A DNA stretch of 64,000 nucleotides from a virus. Shown here piece by piece: positions 10,161 to 63,128 of the stretch. The stretch covers positions 8,609 to 72,608 of IMG/VR virus record IMGVR_UViG_3300013102_000032, one strand, 5' to 3'. The notes under the pieces were generated by a model. That model had not been told where the DNA came from and did no database searches. It saw only the letters and a list, made by a program, of their open reading frames with translations. How positions within the stretch are numbered: the stretch's first letter is position 1; each line of letters begins with the position of its first letter. Position numbers and translations under genes: made by a program.

Positions 10161-10799
10161 TTGAAAATGAGTATAAATGAAGAGAAAAAGTTTCTATATT
10201 CGATTCTTGAAAATATCACAGAGGAAAGAAAAAAATTAACTAATGCTTATTTGGATATCGTTAATAAAATTACAGAGCTAGAAAAAGAGTCTAGAAGTTA
10301 TAGAGAACAGAGTGAGACGAAAGACGCTGTAGAAAAAGTTCAGAATATAGAATTTAAAAAAGAAGCTAAGACACCAAGCATAATGATTGAAGAGATAGTA
10401 GAGGCTGAGCCTGTTGAGGTTACTAAGAAAGAAGATGTGAGAACCTTAGCAGAAATAATAGAAGAACATAATAGAATGCGTGGAGAATCAGACGATAAGC
10501 CAGATGAATTATCAGAGAGTAAAATACCAAAAGAAGAAATAGAAAGAGAAAAAGATAAACTACCTAGAAAGTCTCCGTATTTGAATATTGATAAAGTGAA
10601 TGGATTGATATCTCAGATATTAAAAGAAAAGGGCTCTCCTATGCATGTAAAGGAGATATTTGCTAAATTAAATTCTATGCTAGATAACGATGTTAATATT
10701 CAGAATCTACGCAATAACATTCTTCCTAGAGTGTGTAAGAGTAATCCTAAAATAGAAAGAGCATTGCGTGGTTATTATCAATATAATTATAATGGATAA
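10161..10799 (+). CDS. Rok-like DNA-binding protein (N-terminal coiled coil, C-terminal winged helix)
   Basis: C-terminus ILKEKGSPMHVKEI...NLRNNILPR...KIERALRGYYQY resembles the Bacillus Rok wHTH; N-terminal helical oligomerisation segment. Confidence 0.6.
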   Translation: MKMSINEEKKFLYSILENITEERKKLTNAYLDIVNKITELEKESRSYREQSETKDAVEKVQNIEFKKEAKTPSIMIEEIVEAEPVEVTKKEDVRTLAEIIEEHNRMRGESDDKPDELSESKIPKEEIEREKDKLPRKSPYLNIDKVNGLISQILKEKGSPMHVKEIFAKLNSMLDNDVNIQNLRNNILPRVCKSNPKIERALRGYYQYNYNG

Positions 10800-10813
10800 A
10801 ATTACACTTTTAT
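10796..10813. repeat. Palindromic junction element (G)ATAAAA-TTACAC-TTTTAT(C)
   Basis: Contains the stop codon of the Rok-like gene. Confidence 0.7.
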
Positions 10814-20182: not shown

Positions 20183-20659
20183 CTATTCTATGTATTCAAA
20201 ATTTATTCGTAAAACATAACCTTTGCCATCTTCACCTTCATAATATTCATGCTCTGAATCACAAGACATGCAGAATGTAGTAAATTCATCCACTAAGTTA
20301 TTCTTTCTACTTCCACAACTAGGACATATATCAAGAGTAAACTCGCCATCAATCCTAGTATAAACACTCTCTTCACTAGGTTTCTCCTTGATGGCTTGAC
20401 CAAATTTAACACATGCTTTTTTAACTGTATTTGCATTAATATTTAACTCTCTTGCAATGTCGCTTCTAGAAGCACCGTTGATATCACGCTCTGCTACAAT
20501 CTTTTTAAATTCATCGTTGAAGGTATTCTTTGTACGACTTTCATCTTTATATTTTAGCAACTCTTCTATTACGTTATCTTCGCTCAGCCCAAGCATTTCA
20601 GAAATAACTTGTATTGAGTCTCCGCTAGAGTAAGATTCTAAAATTCTATCTAATGTCAT
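20183..20659 (-). CDS. HTH + zinc-ribbon protein
   Basis: SRSDIARELNINANTV HTH; CPSC...CMSC. Confidence 0.65.
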   Translation of the reverse strand: MTLDRILESYSSGDSIQVISEMLGLSEDNVIEELLKYKDESRTKNTFNDEFKKIVAERDINGASRSDIARELNINANTVKKACVKFGQAIKEKPSEESVYTRIDGEFTLDICPSCGSRKNNLVDEFTTFCMSCDSEHEYYEGEDGKGYVLRINFEYIE

Positions 20660-23427: not shown

Positions 23428-24270
23428 TTATCCGTTTAATACTTCTTCGATATTATAGATTTGTAATTGCTCTTTAAATTTAGCATTCTCCCAATTTCCT
23501 TGCTCTGTTAAAATCGTGTCTGTTGTGAATACTTTATCAACATGGTCAAATAGCTCACCTTTGAAGATACTGTTTTCAGCATGTGCCACTAGTAAATAGA
23601 TTTTCTCAAAACCTTCCGCACGTAAGCGTTTAGCACTATGTACAAAAGTTCCTCCATAAGACGATAAATCATCAACAATTATAGCAGTTTTTCCTTGCTT
23701 GTCTTTGTTTCCAATTAAATCTAATCCTTGGATTTCACCTGTTTTAAAATCTCTTACCTTATGACCAATTAAAACATTGTCTGTCTTCATATTTTTATAC
23801 CTCCGTGATGCACCTAAATCTGGAAACATGATATAATCTTTCTCTATATCAAATCCAACCTCTTCCATCACTTTAGGCAATAAGTCAAAGTTGATAAATT
23901 TAGATTCAACGTTATTTAGTAAAGCAGGAGTAACGTCAGAATGAGGTTCAATAACTACGACCTTACTAAAATTCATTTCGTTAATGAAATTAGACACATA
24001 CTTTAACGTAAACGGAGATCCCTCTTCACTTCTATCCATTCGACTATAAGGCATGTAATAGATTGTCAGTTTAACTGCATCTATTCCAAAGAATGAATCT
24101 AGATAATTTTTTACAAACCGTAGTTTAATCAAATCTGAATCGTCTTCGAATTTGAAATGTATCTTTGGAAACATTAGCGGAATACCTTTTTCAATACTGT
24201 CATGTACTAATTTTGTTTCTCCGTTTGGAAATTTCTCGAATACAACTTCTTTACCGTTTACTTTAATCAT
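23428..24270 (-). CDS. Ribose-phosphate pyrophosphokinase-like protein (PRS/Adps)
   Basis: FPNGET, YMPYSRMDR, EPHS, FPDLGA, IVDDLSSYGGTF. Confidence 0.9.
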   Translation of the reverse strand: MIKVNGKEVVFEKFPNGETKLVHDSIEKGIPLMFPKIHFKFEDDSDLIKLRFVKNYLDSFFGIDAVKLTIYYMPYSRMDRSEEGSPFTLKYVSNFINEMNFSKVVVIEPHSDVTPALLNNVESKFINFDLLPKVMEEVGFDIEKDYIMFPDLGASRRYKNMKTDNVLIGHKVRDFKTGEIQGLDLIGNKDKQGKTAIIVDDLSSYGGTFVHSAKRLRAEGFEKIYLLVAHAENSIFKGELFDHVDKVFTTDTILTEQGNWENAKFKEQLQIYNIEEVLNG

Positions 24271-25502: not shown

Positions 25503-25802
25503 CTATTTTATCGGCTTTGTAAAAATAAAATATCCTTTAGTTGAATTATTGCTTGACAAATTTGGATCTGATTCTACGTCTAAGATCTCTAAGTCGGTAT
25601 TTTCATTTAAAAACGTCTTATAACTTTTAGGAAAGTCCATATTAGAATCTCCTCGTTCTATATAATAAAGATTACCATCTATCAAGGTAGTGTATGCGGA
25701 TATAGAATTTTCACCAACGTTGTCTACATTAGTATACGGTTCGCCTTGACATCCAATTAACATAAATGCAGAAATCATTGTAATTGCTATAAGTTTTTTC
25801 AT
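25503..25802 (-). CDS. Lipoprotein
   Basis: MKK-hydrophobic-LIGC lipobox. Confidence 0.75.
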   Translation of the reverse strand: MKKLIAITMISAFMLIGCQGEPYTNVDNVGENSISAYTTLIDGNLYYIERGDSNMDFPKSYKTFLNENTDLEILDVESDPNLSSNNSTKGYFIFTKPIK

Positions 25803-25813
25803 CTAGTCATCTC

Positions 25814-26317
25814 CTATTTTAAAAATAGTCTCTTTATTAAATTTAAGTCTTTATTTAATTCGCTTCTAATTCTAGTCAGTCTTCCGCAAAATTCACTATT
25901 AGTTAATACAGTTTTACTAGGGTCTTTCTTGCCCATTGAATGCGTTAGAGTTGCTTTGCCTGTGGCTAATAGAGCTTTGCAAAACTTATCGTTCTTAGCC
26001 AGTCGATCAAACGCTTTATCTAAGAGTTCTTGATAACGATCACTGTGACGGTCAATTTCTTCGCCCTTCCAGTATAATGTCTGAGTACGATACCAATTCT
26101 TTTTCTTGCCTTTAAACTTGGCTTGCTTGCCAACCAACGTGCAAACGTGTATTTGCATTTCTGGATTAGAATATTTTAATGATTGCAAAAAACCTTCCAT
26201 TGAAGCACATTGAACTCCATCAATCTCAAAATTATGAGGTGAAAAGTTGCTAAGTGCTGATTCTGGATATCCATTACCGCTACCTATGTCCATATTTATC
26301 TCTCCTTTATAGTTCAT
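25814..26317 (-). CDS. NADAR-like protein (T4 gp30.3-like)
   Basis: ALSNFSPH.FEIDGV...SMEGFLQSLK...KALLATG..LTH. Confidence 0.7.
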   Translation of the reverse strand: MNYKGEINMDIGSGNGYPESALSNFSPHNFEIDGVQCASMEGFLQSLKYSNPEMQIHVCTLVGKQAKFKGKKKNWYRTQTLYWKGEEIDRHSDRYQELLDKAFDRLAKNDKFCKALLATGKATLTHSMGKKDPSKTVLTNSEFCGRLTRIRSELNKDLNLIKRLFLK

Positions 26318-26622
26318 CCTTTTAATGATTTTAAGAAATCTATGTCATCCTCTATCTTTTTTAACTCTGATTTTTTCAAAGTCAATTCTTCGTCTAATTT
26401 TTTTAATCTATCAAATTCAAGAGTCCATCTCCAAACGTCATTTTTTATATAACGCCTAATCATAACTCCTTTAAGCCATACTTGTAGGTATAAAACTTTA
26501 TAAGGTAAATCGATATTAATATTAAAAGCAAACACTTTATCTTGCCCTGCATATAATGTATCTTGCTCTTTTTTGTCTATTTTTGTTCCGATTACAACAT
26601 ATGTTTCTTCCATTATTATCAC
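26314..26622 (-). CDS. Hypothetical protein
   Basis: ORF with RBS, C-terminal coiled coil. Confidence 0.55.
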   Translation of the reverse strand: MIIMEETYVVIGTKIDKKEQDTLYAGQDKVFAFNINIDLPYKVLYLQVWLKGVMIRRYIKNDVWRWTLEFDRLKKLDEELTLKKSELKKIEDDIDFLKSLKG

Positions 26623-26721
26623 TCACCTTTTATTTTTGTTAAAGATTCTACCTTGCATAAATCCCAATACGTATACAAACACTGAATATAAGACGAATAC
26701 AATCACTGGAAGTGCAACCAT
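26623..26721 (-). CDS. Small single-TM peptide (not in ORF track)
   Basis: MVALPVIVFVLYSVFVYVLGFMQGRIFNKNKR; GAGG RBS. Confidence 0.5.
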   Translation of the reverse strand: MVALPVIVFVLYSVFVYVLGFMQGRIFNKNKR

Positions 26722-26757
26722 AAGTTCTTCCTCTCTATGTAATTAGTTTTTATAAAT

Positions 26758-26976
26758 CTATAATCTAGTTAAATCGAAAGGAGTAGCTTCTCTTTGTGCT
26801 ATGATAGCAAATAACTCCTGTTCATGACTGTCATTAAGACATTGGTATGTTGCAATACTTTTAACCATCTTCATTCCAAAAACATTTATAAATTCTCTTT
26901 TGCTATTCCAATAAATGCCTTTATCACCGCATCTAGGACATTTGTTTTCGTTCACACGCCAAACGGTTAAATCCAT
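26758..26976 (-). CDS. Hypothetical zinc-ribbon-like protein
   Basis: CPRC...C..H. Confidence 0.55.
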   Translation of the reverse strand: MDLTVWRVNENKCPRCGDKGIYWNSKREFINVFGMKMVKSIATYQCLNDSHEQELFAIIAQREATPFDLTRL

Positions 26977-27007
26977 TACATCATCTCCAATTCATAAAAT
27001 TCAGTTT

Positions 27008-27238
27008 TTATCTAATTGTCATTCTTTCAATGTGAAAAGGATAAGTACCTTCTGAGTATTCTGCACAAGTTTCACAATCGAAACAATTAACTTTAAAGCC
27101 TAAAGGTTTTAGCTTTTCGTTAATGTAGCTTTTTTCTTCTTCGGTTATGATTCGTTTAATACTTCCTTCAACAGTACAATTACTCTTTTCACTCATAGCT
27201 TCATCTAGAAAGCCTTGCAAAGCACTATCTAATTTCAT
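27008..27238 (-). CDS. Hypothetical protein (cassette-like)
   Basis: Stop TAA inside junction element; Cys cluster. Confidence 0.6.
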   Translation of the reverse strand: MKLDSALQGFLDEAMSEKSNCTVEGSIKRIITEEEKSYINEKLKPLGFKVNCFDCETCAEYSEGTYPFHIERMTIR

Positions 27239-27267
27239 ATGTCCACCCCATTCATAAAATTGAGTTT

Positions 27268-27414
27268 TTATACATTTGTGTCTTTTATTCTAATTTTCAA
27301 TATATCCAATGTATCTATAACTCCTTGTGCGAATCCTTCTCCCCATGCACCATCATAAGGGTCAACATCAATTAATTCTAGCAACTGTTTTCGTTGTTCT
27401 TCTGTAATCTGCAT
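27268..27414 (-). CDS. Small hypothetical protein (not in ORF track)
   Basis: MQITEEQRKQLLELIDVDPYDGAWGEGFAQGVIDTLDILKIRIKDTNV; GGGTGA RBS; stop inside element. Confidence 0.65.
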   Translation of the reverse strand: MQITEEQRKQLLELIDVDPYDGAWGEGFAQGVIDTLDILKIRIKDTNV

Positions 27415-27442
27415 ATTATCACCCTTTCATAAAAGTAAACTT

Positions 27443-27592
27443 TTATCTATCATAATCCTTTACGATTACTTCTGCTTCATCAAGCCATTCACTTATATCG
27501 CCATATGAATCGTGAGGAATATCGCCATGCGACCTTAAATCATCGACTTCATTTCTAATATTGTTGATTAATTTTAATAATTCACCTATCAT
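27443..27592 (-). CDS. Small acidic protein (not in ORF track)
   Basis: MIGELLKLINNIRNEVDDLRSHGDIPHDSYGDISEWLDEAEVIVKDYDR; GGAGGG RBS; stop inside element. Confidence 0.65.
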   Translation of the reverse strand: MIGELLKLINNIRNEVDDLRSHGDIPHDSYGDISEWLDEAEVIVKDYDR

Positions 27593-27623
27593 ATTGTCAC
27601 CCTCCATAAAAGTAAATTTTTAT

Positions 27624-27854
27624 CTATTGTTTCCATCTGTCTAATTCGTCTTGATAGTTAGAAATTACAGTATCGAAGCCATTCGACAATTTACCTATCA
27701 CATCTTTACGATGAATATCTTCTGTCCAAATACACTTAGGAAACCAATACTTCCTAGGTTTGTACAACTTATATTTGTACATTGGCGTTATAGAATCTCC
27801 CCAAAATGACACCTTGATTATAAACCCTTTATATTCTTCTTTCATTGTCATCAC
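27624..27854 (-). CDS. Hypothetical protein (cassette-like)
   Basis: TAG abuts element; GGAG RBS. Confidence 0.6.
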   Translation of the reverse strand: MMTMKEEYKGFIIKVSFWGDSITPMYKYKLYKPRKYWFPKCIWTEDIHRKDVIGKLSNGFDTVISNYQDELDRWKQ

Positions 27855-27877
27855 TCCTGTTTAAAATTAAGATTTTA

Positions 27878-28546
27878 TCAATGTGCAGGTACGAATTTAT
27901 TACGGTTTAACTCTTCTATTTCCGCTTTCAATCTAGCTACTTCTTCATAATGCTCTTTGATTTCCCATAAGTGAGGTTCAATTGTAGTCTTTGCTGAATT
28001 GAAATATCCTGCATATCGTGGATATCTAATTCTTCCTTCTTTGAATAATGGGATGAAATGCTTTTCAGTTTCCATAGCTTGTCTAAGCTTTTTCTCTGGC
28101 GTAGCATCTCGTAGCGTTCCGAAATTGTGCTTTCTGTCAGAAGTCTTCAATAATAAAGCTCTTACATCTAATAAAATAGGCTGTAGATAAGCTACCATAT
28201 TCTCATCTATCTTATAGTCAATTCCTTCTTTTTTAGTAACCAAGTCCACCATAACTGCAACATTGCTATTAAATTTATCTTCAATCATTCGATTAGTTAC
28301 TCCGTAGATATCTTCTGGTGCATCGTGCAATAACATTCCAGTAAGAATATCTTGGTTTCTTATTCCATGATTGAATAAATCTTGCGTGGTGGCTACGAGA
28401 TGATAGTAATAGTGAGTGCCGTTATGCCTTGAGAATCCTTTTTCCGTACACATCTCTTCTATCATCCAATCCAAAGCTCTTAGTGAATCATCATACCCTA
28501 AATTAGATAATGACCTTTCTAAATGTCTAACTAAACTTTCACTCAT
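27878..28546 (-). CDS. RelA/SpoT-type HD hydrolase (small alarmone hydrolase/Mesh1-like)
   Basis: RHNGTHYYYHL, LLHDAPED, VDLVTK, LLKTSDRKHN. Confidence 0.8.
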   Translation of the reverse strand: MSESLVRHLERSLSNLGYDDSLRALDWMIEEMCTEKGFSRHNGTHYYYHLVATTQDLFNHGIRNQDILTGMLLHDAPEDIYGVTNRMIEDKFNSNVAVMVDLVTKKEGIDYKIDENMVAYLQPILLDVRALLLKTSDRKHNFGTLRDATPEKKLRQAMETEKHFIPLFKEGRIRYPRYAGYFNSAKTTIEPHLWEIKEHYEEVARLKAEIEELNRNKFVPAH

Positions 28547-28576
28547 ATTCTCGTCCTCCCCATTTGCTTATATCTT

Positions 28577-28605
28577 ATTATATCATTATTAAAAGCTTTT
28601 GTCAA
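28577..28605 (-). promoter_or_regulatory. sigmaA-type promoter heading the cassette-like array
   Basis: TTGACA-17-TATAAT with AATAATGA. Confidence 0.8.
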
Positions 28606-28611
28606 CAGTTT

Positions 28612-29169
28612 TTAAATCTTTTCTAACATTTTAACATCTAATGTCTTTGGATGTAGATGGGTTATATTTCTCTGTCTTTTGACCGCATATTTTACAGTTC
28701 CCCAAGTGCCTCCATCTTTACCTTCATCCCATACTGCTATAACAAGCTTAGCATTGTCAACCATCCATTTGTCTCTCACATGCATACACCAAGGGGTATA
28801 AGGCTCGTCTGAAACATAATATACTAAGTCTGCTTGTTTTATTACTTTATGATAAACCTCTATATCGTTTTTATTCCATCTAGAATATTGCTCTGCACAT
28901 GGAATGGCACAGACTAGCTTTATGTGAGGGTATTTTTCTTTTAACTTAAGTACAATCTGTGCAGACCAAATATCAACACCAATAGCCATGCCAGTTATAA
29001 ACGTATCAATTCCTCTTCTTTCGATCTTATCAATGATTGTCTCTTTTAACTTCATAAGCATCTTAACATTTTCTGGATGGCGATAATCATAACTAGGAAA
29101 TTTATCTGGTCTATGTCCAGTGAAGCACAGAGTTTTATCGAAATTCATATCATAAACTGTATGTAGCAT
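28612..29169 (-). CDS. SLOG-family (YspA/DUF1273-like) protein
   Basis: CFTGHRP, FITGMAIGVD, RDKWMVD, GGTWGTV.YA. Confidence 0.88.
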   Translation of the reverse strand: MLHTVYDMNFDKTLCFTGHRPDKFPSYDYRHPENVKMLMKLKETIIDKIERRGIDTFITGMAIGVDIWSAQIVLKLKEKYPHIKLVCAIPCAEQYSRWNKNDIEVYHKVIKQADLVYYVSDEPYTPWCMHVRDKWMVDNAKLVIAVWDEGKDGGTWGTVKYAVKRQRNITHLHPKTLDVKMLEKI

Positions 29170-51988: not shown

Positions 51989-52249
51989 CTAATCTTTTTT
52001 CATTACAATTTCTAATCTATATCCTAATGCTTCTGCTAATTTATATAACGTTGAAAATGAAGGAATGTCTACACCGTTCTCAATTCTTGAAATAGTCTTT
52101 TGTGCCACAGTTGATAGTTCTGATAGTTTTCTTTGAGATATACCTTTTTCTGTTCTTATATCTATGATTTCACCAACAAGTTCAAGTTTTGCGTATAGTT
52201 CGCCATCAGTGTTTTTTAAAGCTTCTTTGATTTCTTCAAAAGTGCTCAT
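51989..52249 (-). CDS. XRE-family HTH protein (HigA-like)
   Basis: IRTEKGISQRKLSELSTVAQKTISRIENG...TLYKLAEALG; start reassigned after AAGGAG. Confidence 0.85.
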   Translation of the reverse strand: MSTFEEIKEALKNTDGELYAKLELVGEIIDIRTEKGISQRKLSELSTVAQKTISRIENGVDIPSFSTLYKLAEALGYRLEIVMKKD

Positions 52250-52296
52250 GAAATATTCACTCCTTCGTAGTTTGTGTCTACTGTGCAATACGATTG

Positions 52297-52314
52297 ATAA
52301 AATTGATGTTTTAT
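52297..52314. repeat. Palindromic junction element (G)ATAAAA-TTGATG-TTTTAT(C)
   Basis: Perfect 7-bp arms upstream of the XRE gene. Confidence 0.7.
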
Positions 52315-52324
52315 CCATTTACAA

Positions 52325-52373
52325 ACACAACATATAGTGTGTCAATCGGTATATCATACACTATATGTTGTGT
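52325..52373. promoter_or_regulatory. Pair of NrdR-box-like sites in inverted repeat
   Basis: ACACAACATATAGTGT and ACACTATATGTTGTGT match the NrdR consensus acaCwAtATaTwGtgt; starts 33 bp apart. Confidence 0.55.
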
Positions 52374-52379
52374 TTTGAC

Positions 52380-52667
52380 TCAACCAATATGTAAATCCCA
52401 ATAATCATACGCATCTTCGATTAATTTAACCAAATCTTTATCTGGTTCACTATACCATATTCCATAATCGACAAATAATCTATGATAGAATATTGTAGCC
52501 GACCTTCTATAACTTCCCTTGCGGATATAAGTCTCACCATTACCCATACGACAGAAGTAATAATCCTTCCATCTAAACCAAGTTTCACCATTTCTCCCTA
52601 ATACTTCTTCGTGAGGCAGATATGTCATTAGCCTTACGATTCCACTATAGTCTAGCTTCATTGCCAT
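52380..52667 (-). CDS. Hypothetical protein
   Basis: ORF with GGAG RBS. Confidence 0.55.
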   Translation of the reverse strand: MAMKLDYSGIVRLMTYLPHEEVLGRNGETWFRWKDYYFCRMGNGETYIRKGSYRRSATIFYHRLFVDYGIWYSEPDKDLVKLIEDAYDYWDLHIG

Positions 52668-52982
52668 TTATATCCGCTCCTTGTTAGCCATTTTCTTATA
52701 AAGATAAGGGTATTTCTTTCTCAAAATAAATTCCTTTACTGTTCTGGTGGTGCGTGGATATATATCTTTAAAGTATATAATAAGAAACATAAGTGTGAAA
52801 ATCATAGTTAATATAAATGGTGCTAGTATTGATACTGGCGTTCCCAAGCTCATTATAAACCATGTCAAACCTATGAATACTGGATACATCTTGAAGAAAT
52901 CTCTCACATACTTAAACTTTCTAATGTCATAGTATAATGCGTATGAGTAGTGTTTTAGTTTTGCTATCATGTTTTCTCTCAC
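52668..52982 (-). CDS. Membrane protein
   Basis: Two TM segments. Confidence 0.55.
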   Translation of the reverse strand: MRENMIAKLKHYSYALYYDIRKFKYVRDFFKMYPVFIGLTWFIMSLGTPVSILAPFILTMIFTLMFLIIYFKDIYPRTTRTVKEFILRKKYPYLYKKMANKERI

Positions 52983-53000
52983 TCCTTATCATCTATATAT

Positions 53001-53029
53001 AGTATACCATTATTTTTATCGTTTGTCAA
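53001..53029 (-). promoter_or_regulatory. sigmaA-type promoter
   Basis: TTGACA-17-TATACT with AATAATGG. Confidence 0.75.
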
Positions 53030-53032
53030 CAG

Positions 53033-54805
53033 TTAATTTTCATCTTCGGATAATTGAAAGCCTTCTAGTATCTTATTCTCTTCCATATCTATATAAAAAT
53101 AAATGTCAGTATCTCTAAGTCTATATAAACCTACAATACCAACATTATCATATCCTACTTCATCGCCATTCCAATCCGATGACCATAGCAAATCTTTATT
53201 AAATTCTAATACAATTGTCATAAATTTGCTTCCTCATCAAGTGTTTCAGCATTGTCTTTCATGTATTTGGACAACTTTTTGTATCCATCTGTATTTATAT
53301 CTTCTGAAAACCCTCTGAAACCAACTCTTGCAGGATATACATTTGTTATTTCTGTTACTTGACCACCTTTGCCATCTGGACACCTTACCTCTTCCACAAC
53401 TAAAGCCCATCCAAACGCATGTAATGTTGTATTTATAAACCAAAATAATCCTGTGTCTCTAAACTCTTGCCATGATTTTTCTTCCATCATATTTTTCACT
53501 CCTTATTCATATCCTACAATCTCTGTTTTGATCTTTGGATTCATCTGCCTTGCGGTATATCCTATACTATTACAAACATCGCAATCGCTATTTAAAGGTT
53601 GTAAATCTTCTGCCCATCCGCTATCTGGAAGACCTCTAGGATACATGTTTATAATTTTGGTAGTAAATCCAAAACCTTGACACTTAGGGCATTCAAATTT
53701 ATTTATACCCTTCTTTTTCTTAATAATCTCTTCTATTTGTATATTTCCATATTGCTCCATCAAAATCTCTAGGTCACGTATCCTCATGATATACCTCCTA
53801 TGTGAATCTTAAATACAATCTTTCTTCGTTACGGTACACTTGTACATCTCCTATATCAACTACTGTTTCAATGTATTTTCCACCATAATCTTCGCCAATA
53901 TCAGTTCGAATTTCAATATCTCCGCTTAAAAACATTTCTTTAAGAGCCTTCTTCAACTGTTCTTCAAAATTCAATATCAACACCTCTTATTTTATAGAAT
54001 TTTACTAATCTTTAATAGTATCTCTTTTCAATTTTAATATAATCATATTCAACTTCATCTTCTTTTGAAAGTTTAACATGTAGTGCAATTTCTGTTTCAT
54101 TTGGATAAAAATCGAAAGGAATAGACTCTTCTACAATTCCTTTTCCGATAAATTTATTTCGCCAATGTCCACCAATAAGCATGTCTATAAATATATTTCC
54201 GTAATAACAGATTACAAATTTCTCCTTCAAATTTATTCCTCCTAGTTAAAATGAGAATTTTATTCATCTATTCTTAATTCTAATGCTTGCCTCCAACAGT
54301 TATAACATTGTAAAGATTGTGCTTGCCATCCATGCACATCTTCCTTTTCACACAATCCTTCAAAATCATCAAGTCCAAAGTTCATTGGACACCCTGCTAA
54401 AATTGATAAGTCACCATTTTTAATATCTTTCTCATTATCTAAACAGTTCTGTAAATGTTCAATATCATGAGTTTTAATAGTCTCGCAATAATTTAGAATA
54501 ACATCTTTTCCTGTTTTCATATCTTCACCCCTTATTAAAATAGAAGTTTTATCAATTTATCGTCTTATGTATTCTTGTCTTCCACTAGCGTAGTATTTTA
54601 CTTCTTTATACATAGGGTCATCTAGTTTTTCTACTCTCAAAACTATATTATCTTTATGCCTGTCTCTATTAACAATTGCTTGACAAGGGTTCTCTTTGGT
54701 GCAAGTGCATTTTGATTTATTCACATACCCTTGCCCACCTTCTTTTGCATAGCAGAATTTATTTTCTTTTACTATTTTTTGTATCATATCAAGTATCTCG
54801 CTCAT
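53033..54805 (-). CDS. Run of seven small hypothetical genes (53033-53221, 53218-53499, 53503-53787, 53798-53983, 54012-54230, 54260-54520, 54557-54805)
   Basis: Tightly packed co-oriented ORFs with RBSs; 53503-53787 has a CxxCxGxG zinc motif. Confidence 0.6.
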
Positions 54806-55608
54806 AGCTTTCCTCCTTTATAAAACTCGCATTTTATCTATTAACTTTTACTAATTTTTCACTAGATTTTGTTATCGCCTTATGGCTCAAGTTAGAATTA
54901 TGCACTTTTTCCCATAGAATTTCATGCTCAACATACTGTGGTATATCACATTCAGAAACTAGCACAACATTATTTTTACTCATTTCTTTGCACCAATTCC
55001 AAAAATCTTCATGATTAAAATCATCACTATCATATCTGGTACTTTTTTGAGTTGTATTTGCATATGGTGGGTCACAATATAATACAGCATTTTTAATATC
55101 AGAATAGTCACGATAATCTTTGCAAGTAAATTCAACATCTATTAAATTACTCATCTGTTTTATGGTTTTTTCGATACTACCCTCTATATGATTATCATAT
55201 CTACTTCTCGCAAATCCTCCCCACCATTTGCCACCATATGAATAGTGAAATCCAACTAATCCCACAAGATACTTTGGTAAATTGTTCTGATTATTTTTAA
55301 CATAAGTATAATACTCTTTTGTAAATTGTAATTTATTTGGTTGCCAACCGCTCTGTAATTCTTTCCACATTTCTATTAAGAATGAATGACTGTCATTAGC
55401 AATTCTATTCTTTGTATTGTCAATTTTGTCAATAATATTGCACCCACCACAAAACAAGTCTATAAAAATCGTTTTATCATCTTTGATATAGGATTTTATT
55501 ATAGGTGTAATATGTTTTGAGAGTCTAATTTTACCACCCAAATACCACAAATATATCAACCTCTTCTAATATTATTATTTATTACAATAGATAAAATGGA
55601 AACTTTAT
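54246..55608. repeat. Four consecutive junction elements at 54246-54263, 54535-54552, 54820-54837, 55591-55608
   Basis: Spacers TGAGAA, TAGAAG, CTCGCA, TGGAAA; three contain the upstream stop codon; last has one arm mismatch. Confidence 0.8.
54834..55559 (-). CDS. DNA adenine methyltransferase (Dam/D12 class)
   Basis: YLGGK, DLFCGG, AND, YCDPPY. Confidence 0.9.
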   Translation of the reverse strand: MIYLWYLGGKIRLSKHITPIIKSYIKDDKTIFIDLFCGGCNIIDKIDNTKNRIANDSHSFLIEMWKELQSGWQPNKLQFTKEYYTYVKNNQNNLPKYLVGLVGFHYSYGGKWWGGFARSRYDNHIEGSIEKTIKQMSNLIDVEFTCKDYRDYSDIKNAVLYCDPPYANTTQKSTRYDSDDFNHEDFWNWCKEMSKNNVVLVSECDIPQYVEHEILWEKVHNSNLSHKAITKSSEKLVKVNR

Positions 55609-55865
55609 CTATCTTTATAATACTCTCTCTCCAACTCTAAGACTGCTTGATACTGCTTATTTTGTAACTTTCTTAAATCTTGCGAGTCTGCATAGTGACT
55701 ATGGAATGTAACTCTGCCTAATGTTTCTTCAGTAGCTCCATATGCATATTGATAGCTATATTTATGATGTTCATCCTCGCATTTCGCATATTCTTCGCAC
55801 AATATATGTTCCATATAGTCATCGCTATATTCTTTTACTTCATTATCGCAAATTGGACACTTCAT
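55605..55865 (-). CDS. Hypothetical zinc-binding protein
   Basis: CPIC...C..H; stop inside junction element. Confidence 0.55.
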   Translation of the reverse strand: MKCPICDNEVKEYSDDYMEHILCEEYAKCEDEHHKYSYQYAYGATEETLGRVTFHSHYADSQDLRKLQNKQYQAVLELEREYYKDR

Positions 55866-55897
55866 GCTATCACCCCTGTATAAATTTGAAATTTATC

Positions 55898-56083
55898 CTA
55901 CTTAAGTTCCGCATCAATGTCGTCATCATTTAGAAATTCACACAATATTTCCATGCTATTACTATTCTTAACTACGTCCCAAGCGAGTCCTTCATATCCA
56001 AATTCATATTCCAAAACTTCAATAGCTTTATGAAAACTATAAAATTCATATTCGCCAAAATTAACGATCAACTTTCTACCCAT
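55898..56083 (-). CDS. Small acidic protein
   Basis: Start reassigned to MGRK after AAGGAGG. Confidence 0.55.
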   Translation of the reverse strand: MGRKLIVNFGEYEFYSFHKAIEVLEYEFGYEGLAWDVVKNSNSMEILCEFLNDDDIDAELK

Positions 56084-56096
56084 AATTAATTCCTCC

Positions 56097-56924
56097 TTAA
56101 ATTTCAAAAGTTTTAATACCAAATGACTTATATGTGTCTATACTTCCATCTGGAATAGTATTTCTATTTGGATAATTATCATAATGTTGCGGATAACCTA
56201 TAGCATTCATATGAAAATTAACTCCTGCCTTGTTAAATTGACGTTGCATATGGTCGTGACCACATATCCAATTGTTAGCATTTATAAATGGCACATCTAC
56301 CATATAGCAAGTATTCGGATCGAATGGAGATAATGGATTGTGAATAGGTGGCACATGAGACACAAATACATCTATATTAGTGCTTTCCAAGGTGTCATAC
56401 CAGTCCATCGATTCTTTCCACATTTTTCTAGTGGCATCCTCATTAGTGTATCCGTTAATCTTAATGTAATTAGAATCATTTGACACATTGTTGAAAAACT
56501 CCCAATCTTTCATTGTTTTAGGGAGATACCACATAACATCGCCTGCAAACACTTTTCCTTTGTAGATGTCAACGACTTTAGCTAGAGGAATTACATTTTC
56601 TATTTTGGAAGCTTCTTCGATTAATTCATTAACTCTACTAATCGAGTCACTATACTTACGTTGTTGATTCTTAGACAATAGATATAAGTCATGGTTTCCA
56701 TATGTGAAATACACTCTTTCGTATGATTTGGAAGCTTCTTCCAAAATCCATAAAGCTTGACAATTCCATTCTCCAAAATCGCCTGCAATAACCAGTACTT
56801 CGCCATTGCCGTTTTCAATCAATTTATTCGTCAAAGCTCTTGTTCGTTTCTCCCATTTTATCTGATTCTCTGTCCAAAGCATCCAGTGATTAAAATGCAA
56901 ATCACTAACGAAGTCTATCTTCAT
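56097..56924 (-). CDS. Calcineurin-like metallophosphoesterase
   Basis: SDLH, AGD, GNHD, SHVPP, CGHDH. Confidence 0.9.
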
Positions 56925-56939
56925 GTTATCACCTTCATT

Positions 56940-57650
56940 CTATTTGTCTTGTAATGATTTATGTATAAATAATTTCTCAACTCTAGCTTCTCTTTTGTTC
57001 TTGCCGTTTCTTATGTCTGTGATTGTTTCTTTTTCCCAAACACATACAAAATCTTCTGGAGCATTGTATTCGCTAACAACTACAAAGTTGTCTTTAGACC
57101 ACTCTCTAACCTTATTCCAAAACTCATTAGAATCAAACTCTCCTACTAATCCGTAGCCTGTTGTACCTTTGTATGGTGGGTCGCAGTATATTAATGCGTT
57201 CGATAGATTTAGATCAGTATAATCCTTCTCTTCAAAAGTAACGTCTTTAAGGTTGTCCATCTTTTTCAGAATAGAATTATGTGCTGATAGACAATAGTTG
57301 GTTTTTCTGTTTGGAGATGTTCTAGCGTATCCTCCAAACCACTTACCTGCGAAGCTACAACCAAATCCAACGAAACCTGTTAGATGAGGATTCTCGTCTT
57401 TATTATCCTTAATATGAAAATACTCTTGTTCTGATATAGTAGTTGGTGGAATCCAATCATTCTGTAATTCTTTAAACATAGCAATAAGATACTTATGTTT
57501 GTCGTAGCCAAATCTTACTCCATCCATACGCTCCATAACCCAACCGCTACCAACGAAAGGCTCTATGTAAACCTGTCCGTCTTTTCTTTTAGATTTCAAA
57601 TACTTAACTAATTCTTTTGCAATTCTAGCCTTGCCACCAAAGTACTGCAT
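56940..57650 (-). CDS. DNA adenine methyltransferase (Dam/D12 class), second copy
   Basis: YFGGK, EPFVGSG, YCDPPY; start reassigned to MQYF after AGGAGG. Confidence 0.9.
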   Translation of the reverse strand: MQYFGGKARIAKELVKYLKSKRKDGQVYIEPFVGSGWVMERMDGVRFGYDKHKYLIAMFKELQNDWIPPTTISEQEYFHIKDNKDENPHLTGFVGFGCSFAGKWFGGYARTSPNRKTNYCLSAHNSILKKMDNLKDVTFEEKDYTDLNLSNALIYCDPPYKGTTGYGLVGEFDSNEFWNKVREWSKDNFVVVSEYNAPEDFVCVWEKETITDIRNGKNKREARVEKLFIHKSLQDK

Positions 57651-57688
57651 AAATCTACCTCCTACCAATCTCTTATGTTTATAATATT

Positions 57689-57717
57689 ATTATACTATTA
57701 TTTGTTACGTTTGTCAA
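57689..57717 (-). promoter_or_regulatory. sigmaA-type promoter
   Basis: TTGACA-17-TATAAT. Confidence 0.75.
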
Positions 57718-57795
57718 CAGTTAATTTTTACGACTTCTCCGTCTTTTGTAATTACGAGTATAAAGCATTCATCTCTTGTGAAAGAGTCTTCAAAT

Positions 57796-60136
57796 TTACT
57801 TCTCATACTTTTGTAATGCTATTAAAATATTAGACTTGGCGACTTGTAGCATAGCTCTTTTCTCTGTATATCCAGTCATTTCAAGTTCTATATTAACTTC
57901 TTCGAGCTGTTTAGTTAGTTCGTCTTTTATATTCATAGTGTTCATTGTCAATCACCCTTTTCTAAAGAATCCTTTTGGTCGTTCTTCTTTGTTAGGTCTT
58001 TTATTCTGTTCTTTCTGTTGTATTGCAACCATCATGTCAAAGATCAAAAACTCCCTTGTCTTCAAGTCTAGGTTGAGACTTTCGAATTGCTCTATCTTTT
58101 TATTTCCAAATTTCAATAAGTGTCTCAAAACCATAACTTCCGTCTCTGTTAAATGATTGTTATTCATATTGCTTCTTCTTTCATCTTTACCGCATGATAG
58201 AAGTCTGTCATTGATGGAGATTTGATTTCTAATATTGTCATCTTCAATCCTCCACCTTCTAAGTAATCTATAGCATCTCTAGGGTTCAAGCTTTCAAATC
58301 CAGACATTACTGTAAATCCGTCACTTAATAATTTGAATGACATCGATTGTCTACCGTTATCTCTAATTAAAGTATATCTGTGCAAGCTATTAGAATAACT
58401 TGGTCTAATACACGTAATAACGCTACCTGCTTTTAGATTTTTAATTGCTTCGTCAATAGTTTTACTCATTTGAATCACTCCTTTTTCCTTTATAAAAGGG
58501 AAATTTTATTCATTGTCATTAACAAATTTAACGATTGTTCTACCTTCGTGACCATGAATATGTTGTACAGATTGTATATTTGGATATATGTTATGAGAGA
58601 TAACATATGACTGTGACCATTCATGAATACATTTACCACTAGGCATAATAACTCCTTCTGCAACAATTCCAGTACCGCTTACTCCGCTAAAATCTTCATT
58701 TCTTTGTAGATAATATTCACGTAATCTATCTTTACTTTTAGGTTTTAATAAAACTAATTTTGTATCTTTATTATCATTACATACAAACTCTTTTACTTGT
58801 TCAATACTATCGTAGAAGGATAATGTTTTTATAGCACTAGTCCATTCTAGTAATGTTATATGCGATTTAAGAATTACACCTAAAGCCAAAGTATTATCAT
58901 GTTTGTCAATAATTTTAAATTGCTCCAATGTTTTCGCTCCTTTTATAAAATAGATTTTTTATCCATTACCAATCGTATATTACGCTACCGAATTTAGTAT
59001 CAATAAGATATTGTCTAATTGTTTGATATTTCTTTAATTTTGCTTCATAACCATCTTCTTCTACGTCTAAATACTCTTCTCTGTCTGCAAGAATATCTAA
59101 AACGCAATCTAAATCAATAGTCTCTCGTCTTTCACAATACATGTCGTCAGTAAGAAAAGACTTTAGAGGGTCTTCAACCCATGTTATAAAATCAATGTGA
59201 TTTCGCATATTGTCTGGTATTGCTAATAAATCATCTATAGTTTTAGGATTGTCATATTTTTTTAGAAACTTATATACCTCTTTTGTATCAATACCTTGTG
59301 AAACTGCAAATTCTTTTAATAGTTCAACACTCATATTATCGTCTCCTATTCTTCTTAATAAAAGTAAGATTTTAACTAGCGTTGCCAATTAGCACTCCAA
59401 CCAATTTCTACCCACATATTCTTGTAATTGCCCCACTCATTACTTCCACCCACATCGACCTTTTTCACTTCTTCGATGATTTCAGCATATTCTAGCCATC
59501 TCAATTCTCCATCAAAGGTCTTTGGAATAAAGAGAAATTTTGTCACCTTTCTTCTATCTCCTTCTCTAAGCTTCTTGAATGTGTATCTCATGTTTTTCAC
59601 TCCTTTTAAAAACAAAATTTTAATTATAAATCCAATGCTGTTTGTAACAATTTATACACCCAAGATAATCATAAAATCCATTAATATTATATAGATTGTC
59701 ATATTCATGTGCTCCCATCTTACAATGGAAAGGTCTTTTTAAATATGGCAATACTTTACCGTGATCTTTTCTAAGTTCGGTATTTTTCTTTTTCATTTAT
59801 TCAGTCTCCCTACCATATATCTTATTTAATCTTTCATACTCTTCTCGCTCCATATCACCTATGTTTTTATAGGTATTATACATATAGCCTATATCAACCT
59901 TTTCTCCGCAGTAACAAATTAGAATTGTGTTCTCTGGTTTTACATAAGGGATATACACCCTTCCATCACGCTTACAGTGAGGACAAGTATGCTCTTTAAT
60001 CATTCCATTCATGTAATTACCTCGTCTTCTATATAATCCATGCTAATAATTTAGATATTGCAAAGATTAACGTACCTGTACCAATTATTGCTAATACACC
60101 AATCAGTCCTACTAATAAAGTTGCTAATTCAAACAT
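57796..60136 (-). CDS. Run of small hypothetical genes (57796-57945, 57952-58167, 58164-58478, 58506-58928, 58966-59334, 59376-59591, 59620-59796, 59797-60012 and a TM peptide starting at 60136)
   Basis: Co-oriented ORFs, most with RBSs; several read manually below the 60-aa track cutoff. Confidence 0.55.
58492..59623. repeat. Four consecutive junction elements at 58492-58509, 58945-58962, 59358-59375, 59606-59623
   Basis: Spacers GGGAAA, TAGATT, GTAAGA, ACAAAA; each between a stop and the next RBS. Confidence 0.8.
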
Positions 60137-60342
60137 TTTATTTCCTCCTTTAAAACAAATTTCATTTATTCTGTTCTATAACTTGTTTTGAAATTTTATC
60201 ACTTAATTTACCGAAATGTACCATATCTCTATGAAATATAAAAGACTTCTTATCTTGATTATTTAAAGCAAATACTAGAGTCAACGCTTCATTTTCTGTC
60301 ATCTCTAAAGTTACTTCCCTCACATCAATTCCTCCTTATCTA

Positions 60343-62889
60343 TTATTTTCGACACTTATAACATATAGGCTCTTGACCATATCCTAGCTCCCTATATGGC
60401 TTATCTTCTCCGCATTCAACACACATCTCTTTTGGCTCATATTTTAAGTAGGTTCTACTTTTTTCATCTTTAAGCATATCTACATCTGACCTCTTCTTTA
60501 GCCATTCCCATGTGAAAAATTCTGCCTTCCTAAATAAAGGAAAGTCTAATTTGTCATAGATGTTAATAATCTCATCGAAACTCAGCTCTCCATTTTTGCT
60601 CTCTTTTAATTTCGAGTAAAGCAGTTTTGCAACTCGTTCGCCATCTTCTCTAAACATAGCTCCACCTCTTTAATTAAAATTCAAAGTTATCTATTTTATT
60701 TTCTAGTTCTTCAATATCATTTCTTAAATCTTCAATTTCTCTATGTAATTCATCTAGTTCATTTTCTACTTCAATAGCTTTGTCGTCAATGTATTCAAAT
60801 ACCGAATTTAACTCCGCAAACATGTTTGGAGATAAGTCGTCTCTTTTATTCTCTAAAAACGTTTCTAATTCACTAGCTATATTTGATTTACTCAACCTAA
60901 CATTCGTCATATACATTCTCCTTTTATTTTAATAGTAAATTCCGTAACCAATCTGATGATTTAATCCATTTCCCCAACCGTTAATAGGTTCTGCATCAAT
61001 CTTAAATTGTTCATATTTGAAGTCCTCTGGCATACTATATGAAATAAACCACATGAATAAGTCAAACACACTTTCTGAGTCAAAGTAAGCTTCTTGTACA
61101 ATGAATCTATCAATTTCATCACGCTCACCATCAACACGAGAGAAATCAAATCCATGTTCTAATAGAATTTCAACTGCTTCTTCTGAGATGCTAGATTGCT
61201 CGTATTCAGTTAGCAACTGTCTCCATTGCTCTCCGCTACGCCATTCGTCTAACTGCTTAATATCAGTATAGTTAGCGTTATGATTAAGTTGAAGACCAAT
61301 CTTTTTACAAGTATCTTTATATGCTTGTCGCATTTCTTCGCCAGAGTAGTTTGATGATACGTAGTATATTTCTGATTGGCTATGTCCATCGCCACTCCAA
61401 TCGCCCATAATTACACTAAACAACTTTTTTGTCATATAATTCTCTCCTTTTATAATAGATAGTAGATAATAGATAAAAACATTATTTTATCTATTTATTT
61501 TTCATGAATTTTACCTTCACGCATTAATAATTCATGATAATCGCTTACTCCTTTGAATTTTCCAACCACATATCCAATAAACAATGTAGTAAAGCTAATC
61601 ATTACAGTAAAAAATATACTCATATTATCATCTCCTTATCTTTCTTGAATACCTAAAACAATCTTATCGATGTTTGGATTAATCTTTTTGACTCCGTGAC
61701 ATGTTACACCAACTAATCCTTCTCTAATATTAGTAGTATACTGTCTACGTGATGTATCATATCCTTTTATCGCCATATACATATATATTGCAAAGTCAAT
61801 CTCGTCAGCAGTTAAAGTTAAATCCATTATTTATCACTCTCTTTCTTATCTTGGAGTAAAGGAAATTCTATTTCTTGTACATCATAATACCTATCGTATG
61901 TCACGTTAATAACTGCACCCACCTTAAGTACGTCATATTGACTTTCTGATATATCTAAAACTACTTCATGACCATTTTTTTCAAGAGTTACTTTGTTGTA
62001 ACTCCATCTTCCTACTTCTTCTATGTTCTTCTCTTTTACAATCATGTTATCAAACCTACCATATTCTTCACATCCTACTAATAATAGTATTAATGATGAA
62101 ATTATAAAAACAGATATCAACTTCTTCATGTTTATCGCTCCCCACTCTATTATTATATCATTATCTTTATCACTTGTCAATAGCTAGAATTAATTTTTTG
62201 GTTTAAACGTATATCTTCCAAAGAAATTCTTTCTAGACATCACAGGCTTACCATCTTTATACAAAGGAATCACATGAGACTTAATCGACTGACCGTTAAT
62301 CATTTCGTTTTCACCTTCATGCGTAGAGAGAGAATATATAAAAGGTGTATTATCTTTTCTCAAAAACTCAATTCTATCATCGAAAATGTTATTAGCAACC
62401 ATATACGTCCAACTAGCAACATCGTTGCCCTCTGACATCCATACCAACTCAGCCATTTGTCCAACTACAAAATTCATATTATTTCCCCTTTTCTCATCTA
62501 TTAGTTTTTGATTCTTTGATTAAATGTGAAATTGCACTAAATCCGAATATAAGCCAAACAGAAAGCATTATCCAAAACATAATCATATATTATCTCTCTT
62601 TCTTGATTTTACTTAAGAAGAATTTCTTAATCTTTTTAAAGGTAGCGACAACATCTAGTATTGCTCCGATAAATCCTAATAGCGTAAATACTGCAATGAC
62701 ATTAGATTTCTTTCGTACTATATTTAATGCTATCATGGCAGTTTCATCATTCGAATGCTCTTCTTCAAATTTCTTCATAGCTTCTTTAAACTTTTCGTTA
62801 CTAAAAGCTTCGTCTACGAATATAATTTTAACACCTGTTATAAAACCTACTGCTAACCATATTAGAAGTGCCAATCCAAACAAATTCAT
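60343..62889 (-). CDS. Run of small hypothetical genes (60343-60657, 60674-60916, 60929-61435, 61495-61623, 61636-61827, 62190-62477, 62590-62889)
   Basis: Co-oriented ORFs with RBSs; include a Zn-finger, an acidic coiled coil and TM proteins. Confidence 0.55.
61473..61490. repeat. Palindromic junction element (AATAG)ATAAAA-ACATTA-TTTTAT(CTATT)
   Basis: Arms extend to 11 bp here. Confidence 0.75.
61827..62129 (-). CDS. Lipoprotein
   Basis: MKK-hydrophobic-LVGC; start reassigned because the ORF-track TTG is the promoter -35. Confidence 0.75.
   Translation of the reverse strand: MKKLISVFIISSLILLLVGCEEYGRFDNMIVKEKNIEEVGRWSYNKVTLEKNGHEVVLDISESQYDVLKVGAVINVTYDRYYDVQEIEFPLLQDKKESDK
62152..62180 (-). 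promoter_or_regulatory. sigmaA-type promoter
   Basis: TTGACA-17-TATAAT with ATAATGA. Confidence 0.8.
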
Positions 62890-63128
62890 ATTTTAACCTC
62901 CGTTTTCATATGAGAATCTACAATTAGAATAAGCTTAATAATTTCATCTCTTTCAGACTGTGTTTGAGCCGTCATCAGCTTTTTCTCTAATCTTTTTCTA
63001 AGTTTATGCTTTCTTTTCTTTTCTGCGTTGTTAAGGAATTGTTTAATCATTAATATCACAAACCTTTCGTGTTTAGTTTTTCTCTTACCTCCATAAGCAC
63101 TTTGCCTAAAAGATTTAAACCTCTCCAC
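62886..63128 (-). CDS. Small basic hypothetical protein
   Basis: ORF; true start probably near 63050, after the NADAR stop. Confidence 0.4.
   Translation of the reverse strand: MERFKSFRQSAYGGKRKTKHERFVILMIKQFLNNAEKKRKHKLRKRLEKKLMTAQTQSERDEIIKLILIVDSHMKTEVKI

Follow-up and report, generated by a model that had tools for sequence, protein, structure and literature searches.

A conserved palindromic element with position-specific spacers at the small-gene junctions of Tsamsa-like Bacillus phages

Among described repeats, the nearest to the element that we report here are the 17-bp dyad repeats of the Cluster O mycobacteriophages (Corndog and its relatives; PMC4351075). As described in that report, each genome carries more than 30 copies of the repeat, in which invariant inverted arms enclose a variable center. 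Most of the copies occupy short gaps between genes, close to gene starts, and they are concentrated in the region of one long operon; a small number of copies fall within genes or near promoters (PMC4351075). Small genes are gained or lost by recombination between neighboring copies, and the authors propose that a dimeric protein binds the repeats but assign them no role (PMC4351075). We found an element that is alike in these respects, ATAAAA-N6-TTTTAT, in a 64,000-nucleotide stretch of viral DNA (positions 8,609 to 72,608 of IMG/VR record IMGVR_UViG_3300013102_000032; hereafter, the window). The window comes from a viral contig of 72.6 kb that is rated 44% complete and that belongs to the Tsamsa-like large Bacillus siphoviruses, for which the name “Tyroviruses” is used in PMC9703825. 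Five of the copies punctuate an array of six minus-strand genes (26758-28605), which the original prediction likened to the cassette array of an integron.

Other phage repeats are alike in part. The stoperators of Cluster A mycobacteriophages occur as many repressor-binding copies in short intergenic gaps within operons, and the bound protein blocks elongation; each stoperator is asymmetric, binds a monomer, and points in the direction of transcription. In T4-type phages, the intergenic motifs called PeSLs flank small, non-essential open reading frames (ORFs) in hyperplastic regions, and recombination between the motifs leads to insertions, deletions, and replacements in close relatives (PMC2839356). 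For the element of the Tsamsa-like phages, we give about an even chance to the reading that its copies are docking sites of a dimeric, phage-encoded DNA-binding regulator and are also used as linkers in recombination. This judgment comes from comparing sequences.

The element is far more frequent than expected by chance. In the window, the exact 18-mer pattern occurs 13 times, versus 0.05 copies expected under a first-order Markov model. Allowing one mismatch gives 20 sites, of which the five array sites are only a part. A looser pattern, similar to the one behind the original prediction, has 31 matches in the window (both strands), versus 3.11 expected and a maximum of 8 in 100 shuffles. Exact copies are also numerous in the relatives: there are 14 in vB_BcoS-136, 30 in FADO, 20 in Tsamsa, 22 in Thrax4, 15 in Izhevsk, 18 in KoopaTroopa, 13 in Chewbecca, and 18 in Nate. 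A reversed control pattern was not found in any of the nine genomes (0 copies in each). Furthermore, the spacing is strict. In our contig, Tsamsa, FADO, and vB_BcoS-136, N6 gives 13, 20, 30, and 14 exact copies (0.05-0.4 expected), versus 0-2 copies for the alternatives from N2 to N10. In terms of the features that characterize the Cluster O repeats, each of the nine genomes has 13-30 exact copies, these have N6 centers only, and they are collinear among relatives.

When one mismatch is allowed, our contig, Tsamsa, FADO, and vB_BcoS-136 together have 112 sites, whose anatomy we examined. In 68 cases, a start codon with a Shine-Dalgarno (SD) sequence lies no more than 30 nt downstream of the site. 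At these 68 junction-type sites, the upstream ORF very often ends at the TAA of the left arm or at a stop codon that abuts it, and the SD begins 3-5 nt past the right arm, with the start codon 12-18 nt past the arm. Their sequence logo has T at position -3 (80%), G at -1 (60%), and A at +3 (94%). The 30 exact sites that are away from gene starts have more symmetric flanks, with G at -1 in 21 of them and C at +1 in 19. Given this symmetry beyond the arms, we take the full element to be a 24-bp dyad, T-n-G-ATAAAA-N6-TTTTAT-C-n-A. The base at +1 is mostly A in junction copies and C in the other copies, and the asymmetry of the element is limited to this flanking base and to the composition of the spacer. 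Together, the strict spacing, the invariant arms, and the dyad symmetry suggest that the element is recognized by a dimeric, sequence-specific protein on double-stranded DNA. To our knowledge, neither the arms nor the spacing match the binding boxes of host regulators such as CodY, ComK, Fur, and ArgR/AhrC. Among the matches listed for the 24-bp pattern in viral contigs, we saw scattered single copies in unrelated AT-rich contigs, which are silent on the taxonomic range of the element.

The sites might instead be passive linkers with no protein partner, in which stop codons, an AT-rich spacer, and a strong SD are bundled together and spread by recombination. Indeed, there are stop codons in two or three frames within the left arm and its flank. 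However, this alternative leaves unexplained the strict N6 spacing, the invariant right arm, the dyad symmetry of the copies that are not at junctions, and the absence of the reversed pattern. We consider it to be quite unlikely.

The array itself shows how the element is arranged with respect to genes. All of the array genes are co-oriented on the minus strand, downstream of a host-type (early) sigma-A promoter at 28605..28577. This promoter is as strong as had been claimed: TTGACA and TATAAT are separated by 17 nt and match the consensus at 12 of 12 positions, with a TG before the -10 box, and it is one of three perfect matches on the minus strand between 20000 and 38000. The operon begins with a gene (27878-28546, minus strand) for an HD_4 protein of 222 amino acids (aa) that is similar to SpoT/RelA hydrolases (Pfam E = 1e-10). 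Its homologs in Tsamsa-like phages are 46-58% identical and are annotated as (p)ppGpp synthase/hydrolase.

The five junction sites and five small ORFs follow (all on the minus strand; spacers are given in the sense of the genes). The first site, J1 (27861-27878; spacer TCTTAA), overlaps the TGA stop codon of the HD gene and has one mismatch, in the right arm (TTTTAA). This 18-mer is identical, mismatch included, in Tsamsa, Thrax4, Izhevsk, KoopaTroopa, and Nate. J1 is followed by a small ORF (27624-27845) of 73 aa if it starts at an ATG with good SD spacing, or 76 aa if it starts at a GTG. J2 (27606-27623; ATTTAC), which is abutted by a TAG stop codon, precedes an ORF of 49 aa (27443-27592). 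J3 (27429-27446; GTTTAC) precedes an ORF of 48 aa (27268-27414). J4 (27254-27271; ACTCAA), which has the stop codon TAA within its left arm, precedes a cysteine-rich ORF of 76 aa (27008-27238). Finally, J5 (26994-27011; ACTGAA) precedes an ORF of 72 aa that contains a CxxC motif (26758-26976). J2 through J5 are exact copies. None of the five small ORFs has a match in Pfam.

This part of the original prediction is borne out. The five ORFs of 48-76 aa are indeed mutually unrelated (best pairwise blastp E = 0.54), there is a site at 5/5 junctions (four exact and one with one mismatch), and the plus-strand spacers do form near-identical pairs (TTCAGT/TTGAGT and GTAAAC/GTAAAT). It was also correct that the array has no internal promoter or terminator. 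Promoter-like matches within it (10/12 at 27845 and 27600) are no more frequent than chance predicts (84 found versus 82.9 expected), none of the five junctions has a promoter match of 11-12 of 12, and no terminator-like site was found on the minus strand between 20000 and 38000. We also considered whether the site could itself be a promoter. Some of the spacers contain -35-like words, but the junction copies lack a -10 box at 16-18 nt, so we rejected this idea.

The stop-to-start gaps in the array are 28-32 nt. With a stop codon in or against the left arm and an SD that begins 3-5 nt past the right arm, every small gene has the same 28-32 nt of punctuation. At J2 through J5, the right arm and the next base spell TTTTATG, which creates an extra ATG ahead of the SD. 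The extra ATG in J2 (27593-27607) is in frame with the 49-aa ORF and would give a 54-aa form, while those in J3 through J5 start mini-frames of 3-6 codons. These extra start codons may be accidental.

The position of the junction copies between cistrons suggests another possibility, that the element acts in RNA. An inter-cistronic hairpin could be a processing site, a stabilizer, or the binding site of a regulator that controls translation of the next gene; by analogy, RNase III sites lie between the early genes of phage T7. Consistent with this idea, 68/112 sites are close upstream of a start codon, in a fixed frame with the stop codon and the SD. Also, the sense spacer is strand-asymmetric (T-rich at positions 7-10, with A at 11-12), and the base at +1 differs between the junction sites and the others. 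However, the RNA hairpin is barely stable. For the 24-mers of the 68 junction-type sites, the mean minimum free energy (MFE) is -1.5 kcal/mol, and the arms are paired in the MFE structure for 41 of them. For the five array sites, the MFE ranges from 0.0 to -3.4 kcal/mol, and none was called terminator-like. Because the arms are invariant, they show no covariation, and the length of the loop never varies. At the spacer positions and at the flank positions -1/+1 and -2/+2, the 68 sites show no excess of pairing over column frequencies (23, 17, and 13 of 68, versus 24.3, 20.8, and 13.8 expected). No Rfam family or tRNA was found in the window.

Furthermore, the element occurs in places that are not between cistrons. 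Tsamsa, FADO, and vB_BcoS-136 have one copy each (at 132272, 101376, and 72274, respectively) whose spacer is a -35-like hexamer (TTGAAA or TTGACA), 17 nt before a TATAAT. This promoter-overlapping copy heads a conserved operon of the tail module, comprising two small genes and a tyrosine recombinase, ahead of the tape-measure gene. One exact copy lies inside the tape-measure gene (~3100 codons) of both Tsamsa (121918) and FADO (111644), which are distant relatives; these are the only exact copies in long genes, one per genome. Some other copies stand after the last genes of operons, beside terminators, and a copy in the window (52297-52314) lies 47 nt upstream of a gene for an XRE-type helix-turn-helix (HTH) protein. 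An inter-cistronic RNA role makes no sense for the copies at the -35 box, within the tape-measure gene, after last genes, or upstream of the XRE gene. The copies at the -35 box, in the tape-measure gene, and near the XRE gene would suit an operator in DNA. Overall, we think it improbable that the element acts in RNA.

Just upstream of the copy at 52297-52314 and the XRE gene, we noticed a perfect 16-bp inverted repeat (52325-52373), with arms that are 17 nt apart and that enclose a TTGACA. This repeat could be a second, distinct operator or a hairpin, next to what is likely a gene for a regulator.

To see how the element has evolved, we compared this phage to its relatives. A scan of viral contigs with a single protein did not identify any close relatives, and a comparison of the entire 2.4-kb region to 50,697 phage records gave only one megablast match, in Thrax4. 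This match comprises J3 with its SD and start codon (55 nt, 87.7% identity), and the ORFs that flank it in Thrax4 are unrelated to those in the window. As there were no near relatives to compare, we used the Tsamsavirus clade as a proxy and followed changes in gene order there. A profile scan for relatives of the HD gene identified 14 loci (46-58% identity). The small genes that come after the HD gene in Tsamsa, FADO, and vB_BcoS-136 are not those of the window.

The spacers of the array recur in the relatives, and in the same order; in the three full genomes, the HD gene lies ~18-25 kb downstream of the series. The series is TCTTAA, TTTTAC, GTTTAC, ACTCAA, ACTGAA in Thrax4 and TCTTAA, TTTTAC, ACTCAA, ACTGAA in Tsamsa. 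In vB_BcoS-136, it is TCTTAA, GTTTAA, TTTTAC, ACTCAA, followed by a copy of the ACTGAA site with two mismatches, and in FADO, it is TCTTAA and then GTTTAC. Overall, there were 22 identical spacer pairs between genomes, versus 4.1 expected from column frequencies. Within genomes, 0 of 1232 pairs were identical (1.4 expected, so the lack of identical pairs is not significant). In other words, phages with only ~50% protein identity have these spacers in common, arranged in the same order, but around different ORFs. Among the ORFs beside sites with equal spacers, no pair was homologous at E <= 1e-4. A permissive BLAST of 11 chosen pairs gave one weak match: the 49-aa ORF is similar to a 58-aa ORF of vB_BcoS-136 (32% identity over 41 aa, E = 9e-6), which lies between the TTTTAC and ACTCAA sites.

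The cargo between the sites changes quickly. In the segments that the Tsamsaviruses share, identity to Tsamsa is 81-95%, with Thrax4 and Izhevsk at 94-95%. Nevertheless, the slot after the TCTTAA site holds a different ORF in each of five Tsamsaviruses (47 aa as annotated, 59, 57, 133, and 108 aa), so the cargo differs even between phages that are 94% identical. Some of the small ORFs of the array have homologs elsewhere. The 73-aa ORF has a homolog (41% identity) in FADO and 2S-4, and upstream of the FADO copy there is a site whose spacer differs. The 76-aa ORF has full-length homologs (46-50% identity) in Chewbecca, Skywalker, and MrDarsey. In Chewbecca, it is bracketed by exact sites with other spacers, TGATAC and GGATAA, and in Tsamsa, this same pair of sites brackets a different ORF, of 54 aa. 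With tblastn, we found no match for the 48-aa ORF in the full genomes of three relatives or in the 14 loci of the profile scan, and no match for the 72-aa ORF in the phage collection (E <= 0.01). Since the homologs are flanked by sites with other spacers, the spacer is tied to the slot and not to the gene.

These results bear on two comparisons that were proposed in the original prediction. First, the presence and order of genes was expected to change across relatives; the gene content between sites does differ, and one presence/absence difference falls exactly between two sites (see below). Second, homologs of the small ORFs were expected to carry the same flanking sites elsewhere. They are flanked by sites in Chewbecca, FADO, and vB_BcoS-136, but the spacers stay with the slot, and those in Chewbecca and FADO are different. 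The suggestion that the near-identical pairs of spacers record the duplication of a site upon cassette insertion is not supported. The pairs are common to Tsamsa, Thrax4, and vB_BcoS-136, so they are old and predate the split of these phages, rather than reflecting recent insertions in this one.

The conservation of the spacers raises the possibility that they are addresses. An Xer-like recombinase, or another dimeric protein, might read the arms, with the unique 6-bp spacers specifying which genes are swapped. If only sites with equal spacers recombine, then co-infecting relatives could swap cargo without scrambling the gene order. The inverted arms and the strict 6-bp center have the geometry of an Xer-type core. 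It would also fit that the spacers are all different within a genome, are identical between genomes far more often than expected, and are collinear, and that even closely related phages have different cargo between conserved addresses. The relatives encode 2-3 tyrosine recombinases to which, in the account of PMC9703825, no role is assigned. In six Tsamsavirus segments and in FADO, a site lies in a long non-coding stretch just upstream of the recombinase gene of the early region. On the other hand, there is no recombinase in the contig, which is only ~44% of the genome. The arms are 6-9 bp, which is below the usual 11-13 bp for such sites, and the all-different spacers within genomes are not significant. 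The copies in the tape-measure gene and at the promoter do not fit with the exchange of cargo. We view address-directed exchange as a minor possibility.

We also considered whether the attP site of the tail-module recombinase is the same element. The inverted repeat that lies downstream of this gene in Tsamsa, FADO, and vB_BcoS-136 is unrelated to the element in sequence, which also speaks against address-directed exchange; it fits the 11-6-11 description of a putative attP (PMC9703825).

The cassette-like behavior of the genes between sites is real. The one exact case is an 81-aa gene that lies between the ACTCAA and ACTGAA sites of Tsamsa and Thrax4 and is missing from Izhevsk. In its place, Izhevsk has a single hybrid site, with the ACTCAA spacer and the downstream flank of the ACTGAA site. 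The indel is exactly gene-sized and lies between two copies that share ~30 nt. Such an indel between sites would be expected of passive linkers as well. It counts against exchange by address: the deletion joined two sites with different spacers, as homologous recombination over ~30 nt would.

Could the array be an integron-like platform? If so, an integrase that is encoded elsewhere in the phage would move the ORFs at folded, single-stranded, attC-like sites, and the ORFs would be expressed from the promoter at 28605, which would be the equivalent of Pc. The original prediction was apt as to the outward form of the array: there is a single strong promoter, the small ORFs are co-oriented and promoterless, there is a site at each junction, and the gene content varies among relatives. 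The parts that concern the mechanism of integrons, namely the integrase, the attC sites, and sites that travel with their cassettes, were not found. We found no match to the tyrosine recombinase family PF00589 in the 72.6-kb contig (~44% of the genome) at E <= 0.001, and the positive control gave matches in 14/14 genomes. The 2-3 tyrosine recombinases of the relatives are encoded far from the arrays. attC sites are imperfect palindromes of 57-141 bp with the cores RYYYAAC and GTTRRRY. There are no palindromes of this size in the array: each site spans 18-24 bp within a gap of 28-32 nt. The attC core motifs are missing from the junctions and were found only in coding sequence (28531, 27911; 26972, 26774). 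The spacers belong to the slot and not to the ORF, which is the opposite of an attC site traveling with its cassette. Also, the element is found across the genome and across the family, including at places where there is no cassette. The integron mechanism is not supported, and we give it next to no probability.

This brings us back to the reading in which the sites are bound by a phage regulator. We infer that a protein binds the element, that it acts on DNA instead of RNA, and that it regulates transcription. A dimeric, phage-encoded, sequence-specific protein would dock at the 24-bp dyad and would thereby mark nearly every junction of the early small-gene operons. The bound protein would be a global regulator or a roadblock to transcription, similar to what occurs at mycobacteriophage stoperators or at the KorB operators of plasmids. 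With such a protein bound, transcription could be kept from reading through in the prophage or at a late stage of infection. Tsamsa has been described as temperate (PMC3903500), and the Tyroviruses may live as plasmid prophages (PMC9703825). In a region that changes fast, only the junctions stand out as conserved islands, so they would also be linkers for the loss, gain, and replacement of small genes. Recombination between phages at these linkers would then give the array its cassette-like look.

We identified three candidates for the binding protein in the window. The first is the XRE-type HTH protein (51989-52249; HTH_3, E = 6.7e-16). The second is a protein of 158 aa (20183-20659, minus strand) with an HTH that resembles sigma70 region 4 or LuxR (25.6 bits versus a cut-off of 25.7). 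It is kept in Tsamsa, FADO, and vB_BcoS-136 at 37-48% identity and is possibly a phage transcription factor. The third is a Rok-like winged-helix protein of 212 aa (10161-10799, plus strand), for which the Pfam match is sub-threshold and covers the C-terminal part; by eye, the N-terminal part resembles a coiled coil. The stop codon of this gene falls within an extended palindrome copy (10796-10813), which is followed by a terminator-like hairpin, and in Tsamsa and FADO, the homologous gene likewise ends within a copy. A sequence-based comparison of the Rok-like protein to solved structures gave no homology at E <= 1. A ParB/KorB-like binder was considered and rejected, as there is no match to PF02195 in the contig or in three relatives.

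Another protein drew our attention for its conservation. The 140-aa protein at 58506-58928 (minus strand) belongs to no known family but is 80% identical to a protein from Tsamsa (at 28915), which is far above the 45-65% that is typical of the replication enzymes of the contig. There are copies of the palindrome on both sides of its gene (58945 and 58492).

Several observations weigh against the regulator reading. For the binder, there are only the three candidates from the window, and for the Rok-like protein and its homologs, the matches (22.9, 17.4, and 16.7 bits) fall below the Pfam cut-off of 27.6. Most of the copies are inside operons and far from promoters, so that control would need a roadblock. 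Overlap with a promoter is seen for a single site per genome, and strong Bacillus promoters commonly have A-rich and T-rich sequences beside the -35 box in any case. A regulator that is blind to the spacer does not account for the conservation of the spacers, in the same order, around unrelated ORFs. With the spacers unexplained by the regulator, the idea that they are addresses stays alive.

The linker role is not specific to the sites either. In pairwise comparisons of six Tsamsavirus segments (18-22 kb), homology breakpoints were found at 33/49 sites and at 132/266 site-less junctions, which is a weak difference, and since the sequences are related, these counts are not independent. Judging by these alignments, mosaic joints sit at gene junctions in general, and the sites seem to be used but not required. 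That site-less junctions are breakpoints nearly as often also counts against address-directed exchange, while breakpoints at gene junctions in general would be consistent with passive linkers.

Beyond the array, the transcription unit probably continues through four site-less genes to about 25503. The next junction (26722-26757, minus strand) has just a decayed site, in which the left arm (ATAAAA) is kept and the right arm is lost. The four site-less genes (25503-26721, minus strand) are a 32-aa ORF, a 102-aa ORF, a gene for a protein similar to gp30.3 of T4 (PF08010, E = 4.5e-56), and a gene for a 99-aa protein whose N-terminus looks, by eye, like a lipoprotein signal. The next consensus-like promoter is at 25487. 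On either side of this region are a YpsA/SLOG-like gene (28612-29169) and a gene for a 280-aa protein (23428-24270), which are neighbors in Tsamsa (87338-88788). In the window, they are separated by ~4.3 kb that includes three consensus-like promoters (28605, 25487, and 24540), the HD gene, the array, and the gp30.3-like gene. Because the two flanking genes are adjacent in Tsamsa, this ~4.3-kb stretch with the promoter, the HD gene, and the array sits elsewhere in this phage. In the relatives, the HD gene adjoins a RecJ-like exonuclease gene instead. The minus strand of the window has four more perfect (12/12) sigma-A promoters, at 62180, 57717, 37872, and 33890, each of which heads a run of small genes. 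Also, small ORFs with many palindromes at their junctions form another block at 52000-64000.

Dozens of unexplained small early genes are found in the Tsamsa-like large temperate Bacillus phages, among which are phages of the B. cereus group that have been studied for detection and biocontrol. A single 24-bp element that punctuates these genes would give a handle on the control of the early program or of prophage silencing. It would also help to fix the boundaries of small genes, many of which are misannotated, and would bear on how the pool of “ORFan” genes is exchanged between phages. The spacers are more conserved than any of the proteins that flank them, which is unusual for operator-type repeats and raises the question of whether the junctions are for regulation only or are also recombination addresses. 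If they are addresses, then this would be a natural counterpart of lox/FRT cassette exchange, in which small host-takeover genes are swapped without scrambling or deleting the early operons.

How does the element compare to known systems? Integron arrays under Pc are alike in having one promoter, promoterless co-oriented ORFs, recombination-prone sites at the junctions, and variable content. However, the sites in the phage array are a quarter of the size of attC sites and have no attC cores, there is no integrase nearby, the identity of a site stays with the slot, and the element is genome-wide. The heterospecific lox or FRT pairs that are used in the laboratory are alike in another way: the arms are common, the spacers of neighboring sites differ, and the same ordered pairs of sites hold different cargo. 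Those systems are engineered, whereas the action of a recombinase on the sites in these phages is only hypothetical. Stoperators differ in that they are not dyads, although the mechanism that we favor is the same and would operate in a group of temperate phages. A PeSL consists of a sigma-70 promoter and a terminator hairpin, so that each cassette is its own transcription unit (PMC2839356). In contrast, the sites in the array have no promoter consensus and no stable hairpin, and they lie inside one operon.

The motif of the Cluster O repeats is unrelated to the Bacillus-phage element: it is GC-rich with a 7-3-7 arrangement (PMC4351075), versus 6-6-6 with flanks here, and the hosts belong to another phylum. 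The stop codon that is built into the arm is a feature of the Bacillus-phage element that the Cluster O repeats, as described there, do not share. Nor does that description report what we see for the spacers, which are individually conserved and collinear between phages at ~50% protein identity. Word searches in the main texts of articles on Tsamsa, the Tyroviruses, Kirov, and Izhevsk turned up no description of the element, and it seems to be undescribed for this phage family. Overall, the element is of a known kind of phage repeat, and what is new is that its spacers are unusually conserved and are specific to position.

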